Part shown: positions 8,821 through 63,973 of the stretch, one piece after another
Position numbering within the stretch: position 1 is the stretch's first letter
Layout: each line of letters begins with the position of its first letter
Source of the DNA: Lachnospiraceae bacterium
Lineage (GTDB): Bacteria > Bacillota > Clostridia > Lachnospirales > Lachnospiraceae
Length of the DNA: 64,000 nt
Direction of reading: 5' to 3'
Assembly: GCA_022791815.1 (NCBI GenBank)
Contig: JAAVZU010000006.1
Location: forward strand, 15,186 to 79,185
Notes under the pieces: model-generated
Told to the model about the DNA's origin: nothing
Database searches by the model: none
What the model saw: the letters and a program-made list of their open reading frames with translations, nothing else
Translations under genes and position numbers: made by a program

Positions 8821-10545
8821 ATGAGAAAAGCTGAAAAGACGAAAAAAATAGAAAAGCAAAACCAGTCATTGAAAAAGGCAATGACAATTCGTTCAAAAGT
8901 AGCAGTACTTATGGCATCCACATCTATTCTTTTAATTGCTGGGCTTTTAATTGTTTCTTATGTGGTCAATAAGAAAAATATTGTGGAATTGTGTGAAAGT
9001 TATCTGTATGATACATGTATTTCTGCCTCAGATACCTTGTATGAAAGTTTTTATGGAGATACAGAGCGAAATGATATGGGAGTCCGTTTGGAATATATTC
9101 TTTATAGTGTTGGAATTGATACAATGGATTCCAGTAAGGGTTATCTGGTAGATAAGGATGGAAAATATCTTTACCATGAAGATAAAAATAAAGTAGGACA
9201 GGAGATAGAAGATAATCCAGTAATTGATAATGTATTGAAACGATTGCAGGAAGGTTATATTAGCACAGCAGATGTGCAGACTTGTACGATAGATGGGAAA
9301 AAAGTTTATGTTGCATTTATGTGTACAGTAAATGATTGGGTTATTTTTGTGCAGGCAGATGAGGCAGATGTATTAAAACCTGTATATACTATTAGAAACT
9401 ATTGTATTATTGTAGGACTAATATTGTTAGCAGTAATTCTTGCTATTGGATATTTTATTACTTTTGTAATTACAAAACCAATAGGCAGTTTAACTAAAGT
9501 TATTAACAATATTTCTGAATTAGATTTGGAGAGTGAAGTAAAACTTCTTAAGACCAATGACGAAATTGGTGTTATGGGAACAGCAGTTGCACAGATGAAA
9601 GGAAGGCTGACAGAGATTGTTTCAAAGCTAAACCAGATTTCTGAGCGTTTAGTGGAAGATTCCAATTCCCTATCTGATATTTCAGAGAAAGTGAATGTAG
9701 CTTCTGCAAATAACTCTAAAACAAGTGAACATCTTTCTGAAGGTATGGAGGCAACATCAAACTCTACAGTTGTAGTAAATGACAGCATTAAGAGTATGAA
9801 TGACAATGTAACGAATGTAGCAGATAAAATTGCAGAAGGAAGTAAGCTGACAACCAGTGTTATGAATAAGAGTTATGAGATTCGGAAGAAGACTAAAGAA
9901 GCCAGCCAGGAAACTTTAAAAGTGTATGAAAGTATTCGGAAGACTTCAGATGTGGCAATTGAGAAGGCAAAGGAAGCAGAGAAAATCAATGGACTTGCAA
10001 CTTCTATACAAAATATTGCAGAACAGACAACATTACTTTCACTAAATGCTTCTATTGAAGCAGCAAGAGCAGGAGAACAAGGAAAGGGATTTGCTGTTGT
10101 GGCAAGTGAAATTGCAAAACTTGCTTCAGAATCTACAGATACCAGTATTAGTATTTTAAATATTGTGGATGAAGTAAATGCTTCTGTAAAAACTTTGATT
10201 ACATGTTTAGTGGATGCATTGAATTTCCTAGAAGGAAAAGTTATGCAGGATTATTCGGATTTTTCAGAGTCTAGTGATGAATATAGTGATGCAGCTCGTT
10301 CTATTGAGCAATTTATGAAACTTGCAAATGAAGAAATTAGCCAATTAGAAGAAGGAATCTCTCATATTAGTGATGCAATGGAAAATATTAGCTCTACGAT
10401 CAATACTTCTGCTGAGGGTGTTGCAGATATTGCAGAGAAAACAACAGACGTGGTAGGATTAACATCAGAAACATTTGAGCGTACCATGAATTGTAAGGAT
10501 TTAGCAGAGAAATTAAGAGAGATTACAGTACAATTTAAACTGTAG
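8821..10545 (+). CDS. Methyl-accepting chemotaxis protein with periplasmic Cache-like sensor, HAMP and MA domains
   Basis: Two TM helices flank a ~140-aa extracellular domain. Highly conserved MCP hairpin region AEQTTLLSLNASIEAARAGEQGKGFAVVASEI. ATG 8821 follows AGGGGG; starts 12 nt after the SBP stop. Confidence 0.92.
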   Translation: MRKAEKTKKIEKQNQSLKKAMTIRSKVAVLMASTSILLIAGLLIVSYVVNKKNIVELCESYLYDTCISASDTLYESFYGDTERNDMGVRLEYILYSVGIDTMDSSKGYLVDKDGKYLYHEDKNKVGQEIEDNPVIDNVLKRLQEGYISTADVQTCTIDGKKVYVAFMCTVNDWVIFVQADEADVLKPVYTIRNYCIIVGLILLAVILAIGYFITFVITKPIGSLTKVINNISELDLESEVKLLKTNDEIGVMGTAVAQMKGRLTEIVSKLNQISERLVEDSNSLSDISEKVNVASANNSKTSEHLSEGMEATSNSTVVVNDSIKSMNDNVTNVADKIAEGSKLTTSVMNKSYEIRKKTKEASQETLKVYESIRKTSDVAIEKAKEAEKINGLATSIQNIAEQTTLLSLNASIEAARAGEQGKGFAVVASEIAKLASESTDTSISILNIVDEVNASVKTLITCLVDALNFLEGKVMQDYSDFSESSDEYSDAARSIEQFMKLANEEISQLEEGISHISDAMENISSTINTSAEGVADIAEKTTDVVGLTSETFERTMNCKDLAEKLREITVQFKL

Positions 10546-10680
10546 AACCTAATGTGTAGAGCCGCTAGAGCGACAGCTTGGATTGTGAATACATAGCAGG
10601 CGGTTATAAGAATATGCGGTGTGTAGTAACTGACACTTTTATTCATGATGGTGCTGACAAAGGCAGCATGTAGGTTTAAA
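10546..10680 (-). repeat. Family-2 nested-hairpin repeat, partial copy (first two thirds, inverted orientation)
   Basis: The reverse complement aligns with 21427-21560 (AAACCTACATGCTGCC...AAAGTGTCAGTTAC...CACATTAGGTTC). Abuts the MCP stop codon. Confidence 0.75.
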
Positions 10681-19752: not shown

Positions 19753-21414
19753 ATGAAGAGTGATGCAGTAAAAAAAGGGATGCAGACAGCACCTCAGAGA
19801 TCATTATTTAACGCATTAGGATTAACAGAGGAAGAATTACAAAAACCATTAGTAGGTATTGTAAGTTCCTATAATGAAATTGTGCCAGGACACATGAACA
19901 TTGATAAAATTGTAGAAGCAGTAAAAATGGGAGTTGCCATGGCAGGCGGTACACCAATTGTATTTCCAGCAATTGCTGTTTGTGATGGTATTGCTATGGG
20001 ACATCAGGGAATGAAATATTCTTTAGTAACTAGAGATTTGATTGCAGATTCTACAGAATGTATGGCAATGGCACATGCATTTGATGCATTGGTTATGGTG
20101 CCAAACTGTGATAAAAATGTACCAGGACTTTTGATGGCAGCAGCTAGAGTAAATGTTCCTACTGTATTTGTCAGTGGTGGACCAATGCTTGCAGGGCATG
20201 TACAGGGACATAAGACCAGTCTTTCCAGCATGTTTGAAGCGGTAGGTGCTCATGCAGCTGGCAAATTAGACGAAGAAGGTGTTAATGAATATGTAAATAA
20301 AGCATGTCCTACCTGTGGTTCTTGCTCTGGTATGTATACAGCAAATAGTATGAACTGTTTAACAGAAGTTCTTGGAATGGGACTACCAGGAAATGGAACA
20401 ATTCCAGCTGTATATTCAGAAAGATTAAAACTTGCAAAACATGCAGGTATGAAAGTTATGGAGATGTTAGAAAAAAACATCCGTCCAAGAGATATTATGT
20501 CCAAGGATGCCATAATTAATGCATTAACTGTGGATATGGCACTTGGATGTTCCACAAACAGTATGTTGCATTTGCCTGCAATTGCCCATGAAATTGGATT
20601 TGATTTTGATATAGCTTATGCAAATGAAATTAGTGAAAAAACACCAAATCTTTGTCACTTAGCACCAGCAGGTCCTACATATATGGAAGACCTCAATGAG
20701 GCAGGCGGAGTTTATGCAGTAATGAATGAACTAGATAAGAAGGGCTTGCTAAATAAAGATTGTATTACTGTTACAGGCAAGACCGTTGGAGAAAATATTG
20801 CTGGATGTGAAATCCGTAATCCAGAAGTAATCCGCCCAATTGATAATCCATATAGTGTAACAGGAGGTCTTGCTGTATTAAAAGGTAATCTTGCTCCTGA
20901 TGGAAGTGTGGTAAAACGTTCGGCAGTAGTAGCAGAGATGATGGTACATGAAGGACCTGCAAGAGTCTTTGAATCGGAGGAAGATGCTATTGCCGCAATC
21001 AAAGGTGGAAAAATTGTAGAAGGAGATGTTGTGGTTATTCGTTATGAAGGACCAAAAGGCGGACCTGGTATGAGAGAAATGTTAAATCCTACCTCTGCAA
21101 TTGCAGGTATGGGTCTTGGATCTTCTGTAGCATTGATTACAGATGGACGTTTTTCAGGAGCATCAAGAGGTGCTTCTATTGGACACGTTTCCCCAGAGGC
21201 AGCAGTAGGAGGTCCGATTGCATTAATTGAAGAGGGAGATATTATTCAGATTGACATTTCAGGATTAAGCCTGAATGTAAAACTTTCTGATGAGGAATTA
21301 GCAAAGAGAAAAGAAAAATGGCAGCCAAAAGAGCCAAAAGTAACCACAGGATATTTGGCAAGATATGCAAATATGGTTACTTCTGGAAACCGTGGTGCGA
21401 TATTAGAGAAATAA
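19753..21414 (+). CDS. ilvD: Dihydroxy-acid dehydratase
   Basis: QRSLFNALG..., [40 protein letters not shown] (Fe-S ligands) and [14 protein letters not shown] motifs. ATG 19753 chosen as MKSDAVKKG. Confidence 0.95.
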
Positions 21415-21426
21415 GATAACAGTAGT

Positions 21427-21635
21427 AAACTATATGCTGCCTTCGGCAGCACCACTATAAATGAAAGTGTCGGTTACTTCGCACTACATGCTCTTGTAAC
21501 CGCCTAATGTGTATTCGCAATCCAGGCTATCGCCTTACATGCTCATACACATTAGGTTCTACGATAGATATATCAATTGGTTCTTATGCAAGCACAAACC
21601 AATTGATTATCTATCGATAACACTTTCAGAGTAAA
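21427..21635 (+). repeat. Family-2 nested-hairpin repeat, full copy (fills the ilvD-ilvB spacer)
   Basis: 5' hairpin TGCTGCC-ttc-GGCAGCA, then outer stem GAAAGTGT/ACACTTTC enclosing three hairpins (CGGTTAC/GTAACCG; CCTAATGTGTAT/ATACACATTAGG; GATAGATA..CAATTGGTT/AACCAATTG..TATCTATC). Ends 15 nt before the ilvB ATG. Near-identical copy at 59971-60181. Confidence 0.85.
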
Positions 21636-21650
21636 TAAGGAGAGGGTAGA

Positions 21651-23342
21651 ATGCAGTTAAATGGTTCACAGATTGTAGTGGAATGTTTAAAAGAACAGGG
21701 TGTGGATACTGTATTTGGGTATCCAGGCGGAGCAATTTTAAATATTTATGATGAATTATATAAACATCAAAATGAGATTACTCATATTTTAACATCACAT
21801 GAACAGGGGGCTTCTCATGCCGCAGATGGATATGCAAGAGCAACCGGAAAAGTAGGTGTCTGTATGGCTACCAGTGGTCCTGGAGCAACTAACCTAGTAA
21901 CAGGAATTGCAACTGCATATATGGACTCAGTGCCAATGGTGGCAATTACTGCCAATGTTACCAACCAGCTTCTTGGAAAAGACAGCTTTCAGGAAGTAGA
22001 TATCGCAGGTGTGACAATGCCAATTACAAAGCATAGTTTTATTGTAAAGGATATAAAAAAATTAGCTGGAACTATCCGCCGTGCTTTTGCCATTGCAGCA
22101 ACTGGCAGACCAGGACCAGTTCTTGTAGATATCACAAAAGATGTTACAGCAGCGAAAACAGAGTATAAAAAAGTTGTACCAAAGCTGATTAACCGTGTTA
22201 CAGAGACTATTCGTGAAGAAGATATAGAGAAAGCAGTTTCCATGATTAAGGCATCAAAGAAACCTATGGTGTTTGTAGGTGGAGGAGCTGTAATTTCTGG
22301 GGCTTCTAGAGAATTAGCAGAGTTTGTAGAGAAAGTAGATGCACCTGTTACAGATACCTTAATGGGAAAGGGTGCGTTTAATGGAGAACATAAATATTAT
22401 GTAGGTATGCTTGGCATGCATGGAACCAAAGCAGCAAATTTAAGTGTAACCGACTGTGATTTGCTGGTTACCATCGGTGCAAGATTTTCTGACAGAGTTA
22501 CAGGAAATGCAAAGAAATTTGCCAACAAGGCAAAAATTTTACATATCGATGTAGATCCTGCAGAAGTAAATAAAAATATTCATGTAAATGCCAGCATTAT
22601 TGGAGATTGTAAAGCGGTATTAGAAATCTTAAACAGCAAATTGGAACAGCAAAACCATAGTGCATGGGTTAATGAAGTGATGGAGAAAAAAGAGAAATTT
22701 CCGCTTACTTACCCAGAAGACCGTCTGACAGGACCTTATGTAATTGAAAAGATTCATGAAATTACTGGCGGAGATGCGATTATTACAACAGATGTAGGAC
22801 AGCATCAAATGTGGGCAGCACAATATTTCAAATATCAGAAACCAAGAACTTTCCTATCATCTGGTGGTCTTGGAACAATGGGATACGGTTTAGGCGCATC
22901 CATAGGAGCACAGGTTGGAATGCCCGAAAAGAGAGTATTTAATATTGCAGGAGATGGATGTTTCCGTATGAATATGAATGAAATTGCAACAGCAACTCGT
23001 TATAATATTCCAATTATCCAAGTAATATTAAATAACCATGTACTTGGTATGGTTCGCCAGTGGCAGACTTTGTTCTATGAGAAACGTTACTCACAAACTA
23101 TTTTAGAGGATAAAGTAGATTTTGTAAAAGTGGCAGAAGCTATGGGAGCAAAAGCATATCGTATTACAAAGAGAGAAGAAGTAGAACCTGTTTTGCGTGA
23201 AGTTCTTTCTTTGAAGGAACCTGTTTTGATTGATTGTGTTATCGATCCTGACGAAAAGGTATGGCCAATGGTTGCTCCAGGAGCAGCAATTGGAGAAGTA
23301 TTTACAGAGGAAGATTTGAAGAAGAAAGAATCAGGAAAATAA
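21651..23342 (+). CDS. ilvB: Acetolactate synthase (biosynthetic type) large/catalytic subunit
   Basis: ThDP enzyme: GYPGGAILNIYD, TSGPGATNLVTG and GDGCFRMNMNEIATA motifs. 563 aa. No small-subunit (ilvN/ilvH) gene follows. Confidence 0.93.
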   Translation: MQLNGSQIVVECLKEQGVDTVFGYPGGAILNIYDELYKHQNEITHILTSHEQGASHAADGYARATGKVGVCMATSGPGATNLVTGIATAYMDSVPMVAITANVTNQLLGKDSFQEVDIAGVTMPITKHSFIVKDIKKLAGTIRRAFAIAATGRPGPVLVDITKDVTAAKTEYKKVVPKLINRVTETIREEDIEKAVSMIKASKKPMVFVGGGAVISGASRELAEFVEKVDAPVTDTLMGKGAFNGEHKYYVGMLGMHGTKAANLSVTDCDLLVTIGARFSDRVTGNAKKFANKAKILHIDVDPAEVNKNIHVNASIIGDCKAVLEILNSKLEQQNHSAWVNEVMEKKEKFPLTYPEDRLTGPYVIEKIHEITGGDAIITTDVGQHQMWAAQYFKYQKPRTFLSSGGLGTMGYGLGASIGAQVGMPEKRVFNIAGDGCFRMNMNEIATATRYNIPIIQVILNNHVLGMVRQWQTLFYEKRYSQTILEDKVDFVKVAEAMGAKAYRITKREEVEPVLREVLSLKEPVLIDCVIDPDEKVWPMVAPGAAIGEVFTEEDLKKKESGK

Positions 23343-28699: not shown

Positions 28700-28830
28700 A
28701 TTTTTTAGATAGAAACATGCATTTAACGCGTGTTTCGAAAGAAAACTTAAATTGTATAGTGTTTAAACCCTTTCGCCGAAGGCAGATTATTATGGGCTTA
28801 AACGTAGCTGTTCATGGTTCTGAACAGTTA
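28700..28830 (+). repeat. Family-1 three-hairpin repeat, full copy (A-B-C) in the 5' region of the lipid kinase gene
   Basis: A is GAAACATGC-atttaac-GCGTGTTTC (28712-28736). B is GTTTAAACCC...GGGCTTAAAC with inner TTCGCC/GGCAGA (28761-28803). C is TAGCTGTTCA-tggttc-TGAACAGTTA (28804-28830). Confidence 0.85.
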
Positions 28831-28865
28831 AAAATTCAGAAACTATATGGAGATGGTGGAAGATA

Positions 28866-38230: not shown

Positions 38231-38332
38231 GCAGAAGAGGGGGAAATTTTAAGTTGTAGTGGGAAAGGAAAAAACTACCAATTACCTCATGACAACAGGT
38301 AAGTTTATAAATTTGGCTTTTTATAACTATTT

Positions 38333-38460
38333 GTAACTGTTTGGAACCATGAACAGTTACGTTTAAGCCCATAATAATTCGCCTTCGGCGAAGGGGCTTA
38401 AACATTACAGAATTTACTTTTTCTTACGAAACACGCAGTAAATGCGTGTTTCTTGAATAG
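38333..38460 (-). repeat. Family-1 three-hairpin repeat, full copy in inverted orientation (C-B-A on + strand), just 3' of parC
   Basis: GTAACTGTTTG-gaacca-TGAACAGTTAC (38333-38360). GTTTAAGCCC...[TTCGCC-ttcg-GCGAA]...GGGCTTAAAC (38361-38403). GAAACACGC-agtaaat-GCGTGTTTC (38428-38452). Confidence 0.88.
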
Positions 38461-40750: not shown

Positions 40751-40880
40751 ATTCAGGTAGAAACACGCATTTACTGCGTGTTTACGTAGCAAAATGTAAA
40801 TTTTGATTGTTCTAAGCCCTTCGCTGAAAGCGAATTTCCATGGGCTTAGAACGTAAGTGTTCATGGTTCTGAACAGTTAC
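40751..40880 (+). repeat. Family-1 three-hairpin repeat, full copy (A-B-C) between parE and parC
   Basis: ATTCAGGTA-GAAACACGC-atttact-GCGTGTTT (40751-40783). TCTAAGCCC...[TTCGCT-gaa-AGCGAA]...GGGCTTAGA (40811-40850). GTAAGTGTTCA-tggttc-TGAACAGTTAC (40853-40880). Confidence 0.88.
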
Positions 40881-56276: not shown

Positions 56277-56737
56277 TATATAAGATAAATAGATAATTCT
56301 TTTATTGAATTAAAAAAGAGAAGCTATGGAAAATTTTAAGAAAACTAAAGAAAGAGAAAAACAGAGGTATAATTAGTGTAAAAAATATCGAAATAAATCA
56401 GAATATATCTTACAAATTTATAAATGTGCAAGAAATTTAAGAAAAACTTGTTGAATCCTAGGTTTAGTAATGTTACAATAAAAGACAGTAGCTTTTCTGA
56501 AATAATAGAAAGGTTTTAAGACTTGATGATATACAGCTTGTGATAATGTGAAGGCTGTTATATGCTAAATGGGAAAGACTCTCTCCTTTATAGTATAGGT
56601 GGTGAGTGATAAATCTGTATCAGTGGTAAGATTGTATATACAACTTGATATAGCTCCCATCAGGTGTGCGGATTTATATTTTTTAGGAAAACTGACCCGT
56701 ACATTGCTGTAAGATTGTCGATGACATTCTTAAAAGT

Positions 56738-56781
56738 AAACAACTATGCCTGCTTTGCAGGTACTACTATGAATGAAAGGG
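56738..56781 (+). repeat. Family-2 repeat fragment (5' hairpin + CTATGAATGAAAG) 35 nt before the secA start
   Basis: AAACAACTATGCCTGC-ttt-GCAGGTACTACTATGAATGAAAGGG. The hairpin keeps pairing with a different stem sequence (CCTGC/GCAGG versus CTGCC/GGCAG). Confidence 0.6.
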
Positions 56782-59844: not shown

Positions 59845-59875
59845 TCAAGGATAAATTTCATTTATTTATCAAGAG

Positions 59876-59903
59876 AAAGAAAGGTGATTTCACCTTTCTT
59901 TTT
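59876..59903 (+). terminator. Rho-independent terminator
   Basis: AAAGAAAGGTG-attt-CACCTTTCTTT followed by TT. Confidence 0.8.
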
Positions 59904-59930
59904 GCCTTTTTTGTAAAAAAGTGGTATACT
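59902..59930 (+). promoter_or_regulatory. Candidate prfB promoter (extended -10)
   Basis: TTGCCT, 17-nt spacer containing TGG, then TATACT (59925-59930). This places the family-2 repeat inside the prfB 5' UTR. Confidence 0.45.
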
Positions 59931-59970: not shown

Positions 59971-60181
59971 AAACTTACATGCTGCCTCTGGCGGCAATAC
60001 TATGAATGAAAGTGTCGGTTACTCCGCACTATGTGCTCCCGTAACCGCCTAATGTGTATTCGCAGTCCGAGCTATCGCTCGGTGGCTCATACACATCAGG
60101 TTCTACGATAGATATAGCAATTGGTCTTTGTGCAGGCACAAACCAATTGCTATATCTATCGATAACACTTTCAGAGTAAAT
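59971..60181 (+). repeat. Family-2 nested-hairpin repeat, full copy, ending 22 nt before the prfB ATG
   Basis: Collinear with 21427-21635. The third hairpin is perfect here (GATAGATATAGCAATTGGT/ACCAATTGCTATATCTATC) and carries paired substitutions relative to the ilvB copy. Confidence 0.85.
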
Positions 60182-60203: not shown

Positions 60204-61314
60204 ATGGTTGAGTTAGATAATTTTAAAAGTACATTAGGTACTTATAAGCAGCCATTAAAAGAAGTGGGGGATTCACTTTGACTTAGCTGTAAAGAAGCTA
60301 AGAATAGAAGAGTTAGAGAGGATTATGGAAGAACCAGGTTTCTGGAATGATCAAGAAAAGTCCCAACAATCCATGAAGGAATTAAAAGGACTGAAAGAGG
60401 TAGTGGAAGGATTTGCAAAACTTACAGGTGCTTATGAAGATATTGAGACTCTATTGGCTATGGGATATGAGGAACAGGACGAGAGTCTGGTTCCAGAAAT
60501 TGAACAGGAATTAAATGAATTTATAGAGAAATTTGAATCATTAAGAATCCGTACTTTATTGTCAGAAGAATATGATAAGGATAATGCAATATTAACACTT
60601 CATGCAGGAGCAGGTGGAACAGAAAGTTGTGACTGGGCAAGTATGCTTTGCCGTATGTATCAAAGATGGGCAGATAAGCATGGTTTCCAGACAGAGATGA
60701 TTGACTTTCTGGATGGAGAAGAGGCAGGACTTAAGTCTGTTACATTGGAGATTAAGGGTGAAAATGTCTATGGATATTTAAAATCAGAGCATGGAGTACA
60801 TCGCTTGGTAAGAATTTCACCTTTTAATGCAGCAGGGAAGAGACAGACATCTTTTGTTTCTTGTGATGTAATGCCCGATATTGAAGAGGATTTAGATGTA
60901 GAGATTAACGAAGATGATATCAGGGTGGATACTTATCGTTCTAGCGGGGCAGGTGGACAGCATATTAACAAGACATCTTCTGCCATTCGTATTACTCATT
61001 ATCCCACTGGGATTGTGGTACAGTGCCAGAATGAACGTTCCCAGCACATGAATAAAGATAAGGCTATGCAGATGTTAAAGGCAAAGTTATATCTGTTGAA
61101 ACAGCAGGAGAATATGGAGAAGGAGTCTGGTATACGAGGTGAAGTAAAAGAAATTGGTTGGGGAAATCAGATTCGTTCTTATGTTATGCAGCCTTATACT
61201 ATGGTAAAAGATCATCGTACCAGTGAGGAAATAAGTAATGTTAATGCCGTATTAGATGGTGATATCGACGGATTTATCAATGCATACTTAAAGTGGAAGA
61301 ATACCAAGAAATAA
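60204..61314 (+). CDS. prfB: Peptide chain release factor 2, requiring programmed +1 frameshift (join 60204..60278, 60280..61314)
   Basis: ORF0 is MVELDNFKSTLGTYKQPLKEVGDSL, ending CTT TGA C. The +1 frame continues DLAVKKLRIEELERIMEEPGFWND...SPF...GGQHINKT (SPF and GGQ motifs). Confidence 0.93.
60266..60282 (+). promoter_or_regulatory. prfB +1 frameshift site with internal Shine-Dalgarno-like element
   Basis: GGGGGA TTC A CTT TGA C. The SD-like GGGGGA lies 4 nt before the slippery CTT followed by the in-frame UGA. Confidence 0.9.
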
Positions 61315-63753: not shown

Positions 63754-63973
63754 ATTGAATATGATGCTAGGGTCAAAAGTAGATAACAATGCATGTTTAC
63801 ATGCAAATTGTTATCTACTGGCTTGACCCGCCAAACACCGACAAGAAGCAGATTTGCTTGCAAATATGCGGGATTGGAGGTGTTTGTAGGATTGCGGGAA
63901 TTGCATAGCAATGTAGCAATCCGTAGCATCAGTTGGGGGCAAAATAACTTTTGACCCCAACATCATTGAATAT
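63754..63973. mobile_element. MITE-like element: 202 bp (63763-63964) with 18-bp imperfect terminal inverted repeats, flanked by a perfect 9-bp direct repeat
   Basis: The left TIR is GATGCTAGGGTCAAAAGT. The reverse complement of the right end is GATGTTGGGGTCAAAAGT (16/18 match). ATTGAATAT occurs at 63754-63762 and again at 63965-63973. The interior folds into three hairpins and has no ORF. Confidence 0.75.

Follow-up and report, generated by a model that had tools for sequence, protein, structure and literature searches.

Repeats before ilvB and prfB in a Lachnospiraceae genome: copies of the Clostridiales-1 RNA family, probably carried by a mobile element

The repeats before ilvB and prfB and their relatives in the window

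The window studied here is a stretch of 64,000 nucleotides from a Lachnospiraceae bacterium (assembly GCA_022791815.1, contig JAAVZU010000006.1, positions 15,186 to 79,185) that contains the genes ilvD, ilvB, secA and prfB, whose identities were confirmed with NCBIfam. Its genome, hereafter G000, amounts to 3.56 Mb in 120 contigs with 34% G+C. The original prediction had pointed to two full, collinear copies of a repeat lying 15–22 nt before the start codons of ilvB and prfB, and repeat search, BLAST and coordinates agree with this. The repeat search pairs 21431-21533 with 59976-60078 at 85% identity and 21541-21605 with 60085-60149 at 91% identity, and BLAST gives E=1e-62 for the ilvB copy against the prfB copy. 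Both share the terminus ...GATAACACTTTCAGAGTAAAT, after which the ATG of ilvB (21651) follows at 15 nt and that of prfB (60204) at 22 nt. In each copy the outer stem GAAAGTGT/ACACTTTC encloses three hairpins, forming a four-way junction, and an extra hairpin, GCTGCCTTCGGCAGC, stands outside it. The 5' hairpin and the outer stem closing a three-hairpin junction, as first described, are thereby recovered by folding of both strands; the z-scores against 200 shuffles are -7.7 for the plus strand, which is the mRNA sense, and -9.0 for the minus strand. The paired T>G and A>C substitution that had been noticed in the third hairpin is also present when both copies are compared: it lies in the long hairpin.

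Scanning the window against Rfam gave three matches to RF01699, the Clostridiales-1 RNA (gathering score 48 bits), with 93.8 bits (minus strand), 91.9 bits (minus) and 113.1 bits (plus). The first is the body of the ilvB copy at 21462-21628 (minus strand, E=9.5e-20) and the second that of the prfB copy at 60007-60173, within a repeat that occupies 59971-60181 of the prfB leader on the minus strand; both cover model positions 1-166. The four-stem architecture of the family (an outer stem and three hairpins) is found by CM alignment, by alifold for each subfamily and by single-sequence MFE. Both copies are like the catalogued family in their full 166-position match, their four stems and their conserved unpaired nucleotides, and the repeats before ilvB and prfB are copies of this already catalogued RNA family. 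They differ from its description in being antisense to the genes that they precede, as the model fits the opposite strand in both cases, and from the model itself in having conserved sequence outside it, namely an extra 3' hairpin and TTTAC-type ends. For the ilvB copy, this 3' extension covers 21425-21461 (minus strand), with the hairpin GCTGCCTTCGGCAGC at 21436-21450 between TATA..TATA and, in the minus-strand reading, a GTTTAC end. The same hairpin is kept in most copies of two of the subfamilies described below (A and B), it occurs alone too, and its stem covaries.

The Clostridiales-1 RNA motif was reported by Weinberg et al. 2010 (PMC2864571) as very common in gut Clostridiales; it is scored there as not cis-regulatory and no function is proposed. 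Rfam types RF01699 as Gene; sRNA, with function unknown. Mobility is not mentioned in those parts of the literature on the motif that our search returned.

The repeat between ilvD and ilvB, which had been placed at 21427-21635, is real, but the inserted DNA is larger. It is a 224-bp insertion (21416-21639, element on the minus strand) between the ilvD stop codon (21412-21414) and the RBS of ilvB, and it comprises a subfamily-B copy and one copy of a 7-nt duplication, AAATAAG, which flanks the element at 21409-21415 and 21633-21639. A sequence scan of the ilvD-ilvB interval shows no terminator-like site. Upstream of the prfB copy, on the plus strand (59874-59930), the scan finds a terminator-like hairpin (59874-59903) and a promoter-like TTGCCT-17-TGgTATACT (59902-59930). 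The candidate prfB promoter of the original prediction is thereby recovered, and it is conserved in the relatives G003 and G004. The prfB gene also has the classical programmed +1 frameshift site, CTT TGA C, at 60276-60282, the first frame starting at 60204 and the main ORF being called from 60325.

Further members are found elsewhere in the window. The inverted partial copy of the earlier inventory is present at 10542-10676 (plus strand) as a 5'-truncated subfamily-B copy in which two hairpins remain, together with the extra one and the 3' half of the outer stem; it and the ilvB copy are 79% identical. A solo hairpin module (GTAAAC..GCCTGCTTTGCAGGT..) with a stub of the outer stem lies at 56736-56779 (minus strand), about 35 nt before the secA ATG (56816); as had been stated for this fragment, its stem differs while the pairing is kept (GCCTGC...GCAGGT). 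That inventory counted the inverted partial copy as the fourth; its copies are confirmed, but there is also a fifth related element at 63763-63964 (plus strand), which is a subfamily-C MITE of 202 bp with the TIRs GATGCTAGGGTC / GACCCCAACATC and a flanking 9-bp duplication, ATTGAATAT, at 63754-63762 and 63965-63973. It gives the 113.1-bit cmscan match (63762-63931). A second repeat family, called here family 1, is built of three hairpins with the modules TGAACAGTTAC, TTCGCCTTCGGCGAA and AGAAACACGCATTTACTGCGTGTTTC, and is found at 28700-28835, 38329-38460 and 40751-40880, besides partial copies. Genome-wide it has 22 copies with a conserved spacer, ATTACAGAATTTACTTTTTCTTACG; in G003 it carries the Clostridiales-1 body as a composite, and it replaces the B copy upstream of prfB in G003 and G004.

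Copy number, subfamilies and conservation of the fold

In the genome G000, 44 RF01699 matches were counted, 38 of them above the cut-off, besides many fragments. Several matches are located at contig ends; a mobile repeat would explain such assembly breaks at copies. The element is non-coding, measures about 160-225 bp and is intergenic according to a crude ORF map, in which two copies are overlapped by probably spurious ORFs. Copies per genome range from 0 to >52 among 41 relatives and from 1 to >52 within the genus. Of the 41 relatives, 23 have the family, the 14 control genomes lack it, and matches above the cut-off occur only within this taxonomic family, with one weak sub-threshold match in 16 sampled genomes from other families of the order. 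The genes that adjoin the copies are unrelated to each other and the element is present in both orientations. Between co-directional genes, the Rfam orientation is antisense in 18 copies and sense in 10 when all copies are counted, and 7:1 in subfamily B, neither ratio being significant. Orientation relative to GC skew, which is an approximation of the replication strand in draft genomes, is 23:14, not significant either.

Alignment of all copies with their flanks separates three subfamilies, starting with TGAAAGTCC... (A), TGAAAGTGTTATC... (B) and TGATGCTAGGGTC... (C); the ilvB and prfB copies belong to B. The 3' hairpin of C is unlike that of A and B. Outside the Rfam model, A and B have in common (T)TTAC-T(A/C) on the 5' side and, on the 3' side, TTYATRGTGGTG, a GC hairpin and then ATGTAAGTTTA(C/T). 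The stem of this 3' hairpin exists as GCTGCC/GGCAGC (the ilvB and prfB type), GCCTGC/GCAGGT (near secA) and GCCTCGC/GCGAGGC (in G003). The A/B repeats form modular combinations with other small hairpin repeats and also head-to-tail arrays, and there are internally deleted mini copies and solo hairpin modules. No conserved sequence was found upstream of the 5' end of the element in the aligned copies with flanks, and therefore there is no shared promoter. Among 20 copies sampled from other genera (genomes G019, G017, G010, G013, G002, G008 and G005), most are C-like; relative to these 20, the TGAAAGT type with 5' TTTAC is restricted to this genus. Many A-type copies (L081-L097 in G003; C85:55200-55280 in G000) continue into a second 3' hairpin (TATAGGAAAGTTCGTCCTATA) with more conserved sequence behind it, therefore their full unit is longer than the ~210 bp of the window copies. 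Beside one B copy of G000 (contig C78 near 83,500), a stretch of ~70 nt has >15 matches at 91-97% identity in G003 and G004; it is probably another short dispersed repeat.

A further issue is whether the fold is under selection, as the original prediction had suggested. Covariation is real: when A, B and C are aligned by sequence only, 14 pairs can be recovered, of which 12 have changed on both sides, compared to 1-3 in slid controls, and one position of the long hairpin has three different Watson-Crick pairs among the B copies. The consensus fold by alifold is more stable on the Rfam strand than on the opposite one for both A (-46.8 vs -18.6 kcal/mol) and B (-67.4 vs -50.5 kcal/mol). G.U pairs exceed A.C mismatches by 100 to 29 on pairs taken from a one-strand structure, although this count is biased by that choice of strand; on pairs predicted on both strands the figures are 28 and 22, which is not significant. 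Private departures of single copies from the Watson-Crick consensus are also strand-symmetric (G.U 17 vs A.C 12, p = 0.46), and therefore no selection is detectable on individual copies, those before ilvB and prfB included.

The covariation lies between founder lineages and not at the ilvB and prfB loci, and the founders carry a strand-specific fold, only the consensus being strand-specific. Both the compensatory changes and the one-strand fixation of G.U pairs show that the fold matters to something, for which a reading of the element as pure junk does not account. Templated "quasipalindrome" correction in long perfect hairpins could yield paired changes at the DNA level. We think it possible, though doubtful, that the four-way junction is a functional module of the mobile element, one that the element needs in cis to propagate, either as RNA or as single-stranded DNA. 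Such a module would explain the compensatory changes, the one-strand G.U fixation and the presence of the same body on at least three chassis, which are a MITE with TIRs and TSDs, a form next to TTTAC that lacks a duplication, and a composite within the other repeat family. These data raise the question why a fold borne by a transposon should be conserved in structure.

The same observations bear on the Rfam description, according to which each copy would be the gene of a trans-acting small RNA encoded on the Rfam strand. The strong covariation across subfamilies and the better consensus fold on that strand agree with such a gene, and the 3' hairpin, with a short U-rich run behind it, looks like a weak terminator. 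However, no terminator-like site was scored there, no conserved promoter lies upstream, and at least 38 copies in one genome, plus truncated and internally deleted ones, are not what a small RNA gene leads one to expect. Moreover, where the flanking genes are co-directional most copies run antisense to them, the stems of single copies decay neutrally, and close relatives differ in whether a copy is present. In our opinion, these features make a set of small RNA genes improbable.

Occupied and empty sites, ends and the search for an enzyme

Related strains that lack the element, a comparison proposed at the outset, do exist for both genes. The insert between ilvD and ilvB is present in G000 and G004 (94% identical), and the site is empty in G003 (92-95% identical) as well as in G006, G008, G009 and G001. 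The G003 junction leads from the ilvD stop straight into the ilvB RBS (GGAGAAGTAAGGAGAGGGTATAATG), with a spacer of 12 nt; elsewhere the spacer is 17-22 nt in four more congeners, and four other genomes hold unrelated inserts. The junction (21412-21651) is an insertion hotspot, as unlike inserts are found in G007 (287 nt), G005 (140 nt), G010 (132 nt) and G002 (86 nt), at loci L034, L036, L038 and L041. At the prfB site of G003 and G004, the terminator and promoter region is conserved and another repeat stands in place of the B copy. A joined-flank search of 27 loci revealed further sites at which relatives have no element, internally deleted remnants of it or a solo hairpin, and loci 17 and 26 also differ in occupancy between relatives. 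When young G003 copies were compared with G000 flanks, clean empty sites were few, because several repeat families occupy the same intergenic hotspots.

These sites speak against the proposal that the element was co-opted as an mRNA leader, namely that, as a structured piece of the 5' leader or of an intercistronic stretch, it tunes how ilvB and prfB transcripts are stabilised, processed or translated. Both copies end close to a start codon within likely transcripts, given the promoter upstream of the prfB copy and the lack of a terminator between ilvD and ilvB, and their mRNA-sense fold is stable (z = -7.7). Besides, about 10 of the 18 antisense copies between co-directional genes have their 5' end at most 41 nt from the downstream start codon. 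Such closeness is, however, expected from an original spacer of ~12 nt and from the survival of intergenic insertions only, and the element is absent from the ilvB and prfB loci of close relatives. Nor do the copies behave as a cis-regulatory leader would: they are tied neither to one gene family, having unrelated neighbours, nor to orthologous loci, nor to the sense orientation, since they occur in both orientations and the curated fold of the ilvB and prfB copies lies on the opposite strand, and single copies drift neutrally. We therefore abandon the leader proposal as highly improbable; there is no evidence here for control of ilvB or prfB by a conserved leader.

The mobile structured element that had been offered as another possibility fares much better, with its 38 copies plus fragments, the insertion polymorphism at ilvD-ilvB and the TIRs and TSDs of a sister subfamily. 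Copies of subfamily C are 201-202 bp long, with TIRs of 12-18 nt and TSDs of 7-9 bp, which include AGATTAT, GTAATAT and ATTGAATAT, and one internally deleted copy of 80 bp has its own TSD. C-like copies with TIRs and 7-bp TSDs also occur in G019, G010 and G013, with duplications ending in AT. In subfamilies A and B, the ends of the aligned copies are asymmetric and show no outer TIR, only the internal outer stem being inverted. A clean TSD in B, of 7 nt, is seen at ilvD-ilvB only; in A there is either a 4-nt duplication or none at locus 17, and the composites with family 1 lack one.

The ends of A and B allow for a different route, in which their body would be moved as single-stranded DNA by a transposase of the IS200/IS605 type (HUH, Y1), inserting 3' of TTAC or TTTAC like a PATE, the fold being the structure that the enzyme needs. 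TTAC stands directly 5' of the body in 19/19 young copies of G003 and in almost every G000 copy, and the lack of an outer TIR and the fixation of G.U pairs on one strand would fit as well. About half of the young G003 copies lie within a family-1 repeat. The uninterrupted family-1 element (22 copies) reads ATTACAGAATTTAC|TTTTTCTTACG, and five composites read ...AATTTAC|TATGAAAGT...ACTTTCA|TTTTTCTTACG, so that the body is inserted exactly 3' of TTTAC with zero duplication, which is a hallmark of IS200/IS605 elements. New copies also begin right after the ...TTTA(C/T) end of another one, and the left end of a G003 IS200 has TTAC, thus TTAC-directed elements exist in the genus. On the other hand, the TTTAC is inside the insert and a duplication of 4-7 nt is present at ilvD-ilvB and in two other empty-site comparisons; ilvD-ilvB and locus 26 contradict a duplication-free insertion behind a fixed tetra- or pentanucleotide. 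The five composites may all go back to a single event with later amplification, and their source could also be microhomology-mediated recombination. The left and right hairpins of the element are unlike each other, the IS200 ends are unrelated to it, G000 has no intact Y1 gene, Y1 does not track copy number across genomes and the orientation relative to GC skew is not significant. Considering both sides, we regard a single-strand route as unlikely.

A helper enzyme was sought for the preferred reading of the element as a mobile repeat. Across 41 genomes, copy number is not mirrored by the profiles of IS1182, Y1 or IS110, and 20-22 loci of these three types have neither an RF01699 match nor element-like ends. 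A TnpB guide RNA (omega/reRNA) is out, as the genome search of G000 found no TnpB domain. The only Y1 match in G000 is a decayed IS200-type transposase with frameshifts and deletions (C104:12200-12400), and with this relic and the 41-genome profile a Y1 (IS200/RAYT) partner is discarded. An IS1182 parent is discarded for this lineage too: IS1182 is absent in G000, G005 and G013 and weak, below threshold, in G004, yet these genomes have 20 to >52 copies, and its ends do not match. The same holds for IS110 with a bridge RNA, since G000, G013 and G017 have none despite 17-43 copies, and 0/12 IS110 loci have an RF01699 match. A 19-nt match beside the G003 IS200 is no more than a solo hairpin module next to the IS. 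The place is L119 (G003 C112), where the solo GC-hairpin module is ~50-200 nt from the intact IS200 left end and adjoins a family-1 repeat; that left end consists of TTAC, 21 nt and the hairpin CCCGTGACTTCAGTCATGGG, and several small repeats cluster around it. Extra DNA of 1.4-2.3 kb found in relatives (L078 of G003; C141 of G004) at the site orthologous to G000 C1:12699, which adjoins a B copy, carries a predicted AAA-ATPase-type gene and was rejected as parent element, being an ordinary AAA-ATPase gene. Pairs of termini at IS-like spacing, searched in G000 with a loose regex, gave noise only.

Interpretation and comparison with known systems

We think, with a probability of about 0.8, that the repeats before ilvB and prfB are members of a known family and of a mobile repeat and not dedicated leaders. 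The family body would ride on a non-autonomous, insertion-polymorphic, MITE-like dispersed repeat. Its common form, represented by subfamily C and most copies sampled in other genera, is a classical MITE that moves by its TIRs and makes 7-9-bp TSDs. Subfamily B and its sister A would be a genus-specific derivative, which keeps the junction body but has asymmetric ends of another kind, TTTAC-T(A/C)-TGAAAGT on the 5' side and the GC hairpin followed by ...GTTTA(C/T) on the 3' side. These derivatives presumably spread by transposition, probably with the help of a trans-acting enzyme that this assembly lacks or that went unrecognised in it. The body insertion into family 1 without duplication speaks against this explanation, as it is unlike the behaviour of a TIR/DDE element.

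The copies before ilvB and prfB would then be passenger insertions into a short A/T-rich stretch just upstream of the RBS. The geometry of insertion would leave the RBS intact, so that the genes still work, and the element abuts the ilvB start codon because the original ilvD-ilvB spacer was only 12 nt. In the mRNAs, the curated fold would be present as its reverse complement, which should still be very stable. A dedicated regulatory role of these two copies is not to be expected; an effect of the element on mRNA stability or processing is possible, of which conservation gives no indication.

Beyond the two loci, what Rfam lists as an orphan sRNA family, abundant in gut Clostridia, seems to be the body of a mobile repeat. 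Whereas RF01699 is described as an sRNA gene, here it forms the body of a dispersed, insertion-polymorphic repeat, and therefore RF01699 matches should be annotated as repeats and not as sRNA genes.

The bacterial MITEs and mosaic repeats with which the element can be compared include Correia/NEMIS in Neisseria, BOX and RUP in Streptococcus pneumoniae, Bcr1 in Bacillus cereus and the BIMEs of E. coli. It resembles them in being small and non-coding, with tens of copies that are intergenic and often inside transcription units, in its strong secondary structure, modular build and internal deletions, and, for subfamily C, in its TIRs and TSDs. It also shows presence/absence polymorphism at orthologous sites. 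It differs from bacterial MITEs in that subfamilies A and B have no recognisable outer TIRs, no autonomous partner with matching ends was found at the 20-22 transposase loci, and the conserved four-way junction with compensatory changes goes beyond what is needed for the binding of a transposase to the ends. IS608, of the IS200/IS605 family, inserts 3' of TTAC without duplication. With the IS200/IS605 elements and PATEs, the A/B repeats share the 5' TTAC, one duplication-free insertion 3' of TTTAC, subterminal hairpins and the lack of a TIR; they depart from them in the unlike left and right hairpins, in the failure of our searches to find a cognate TnpA/TnpB and in other insertions that have an internal TTTAC and a short duplication.
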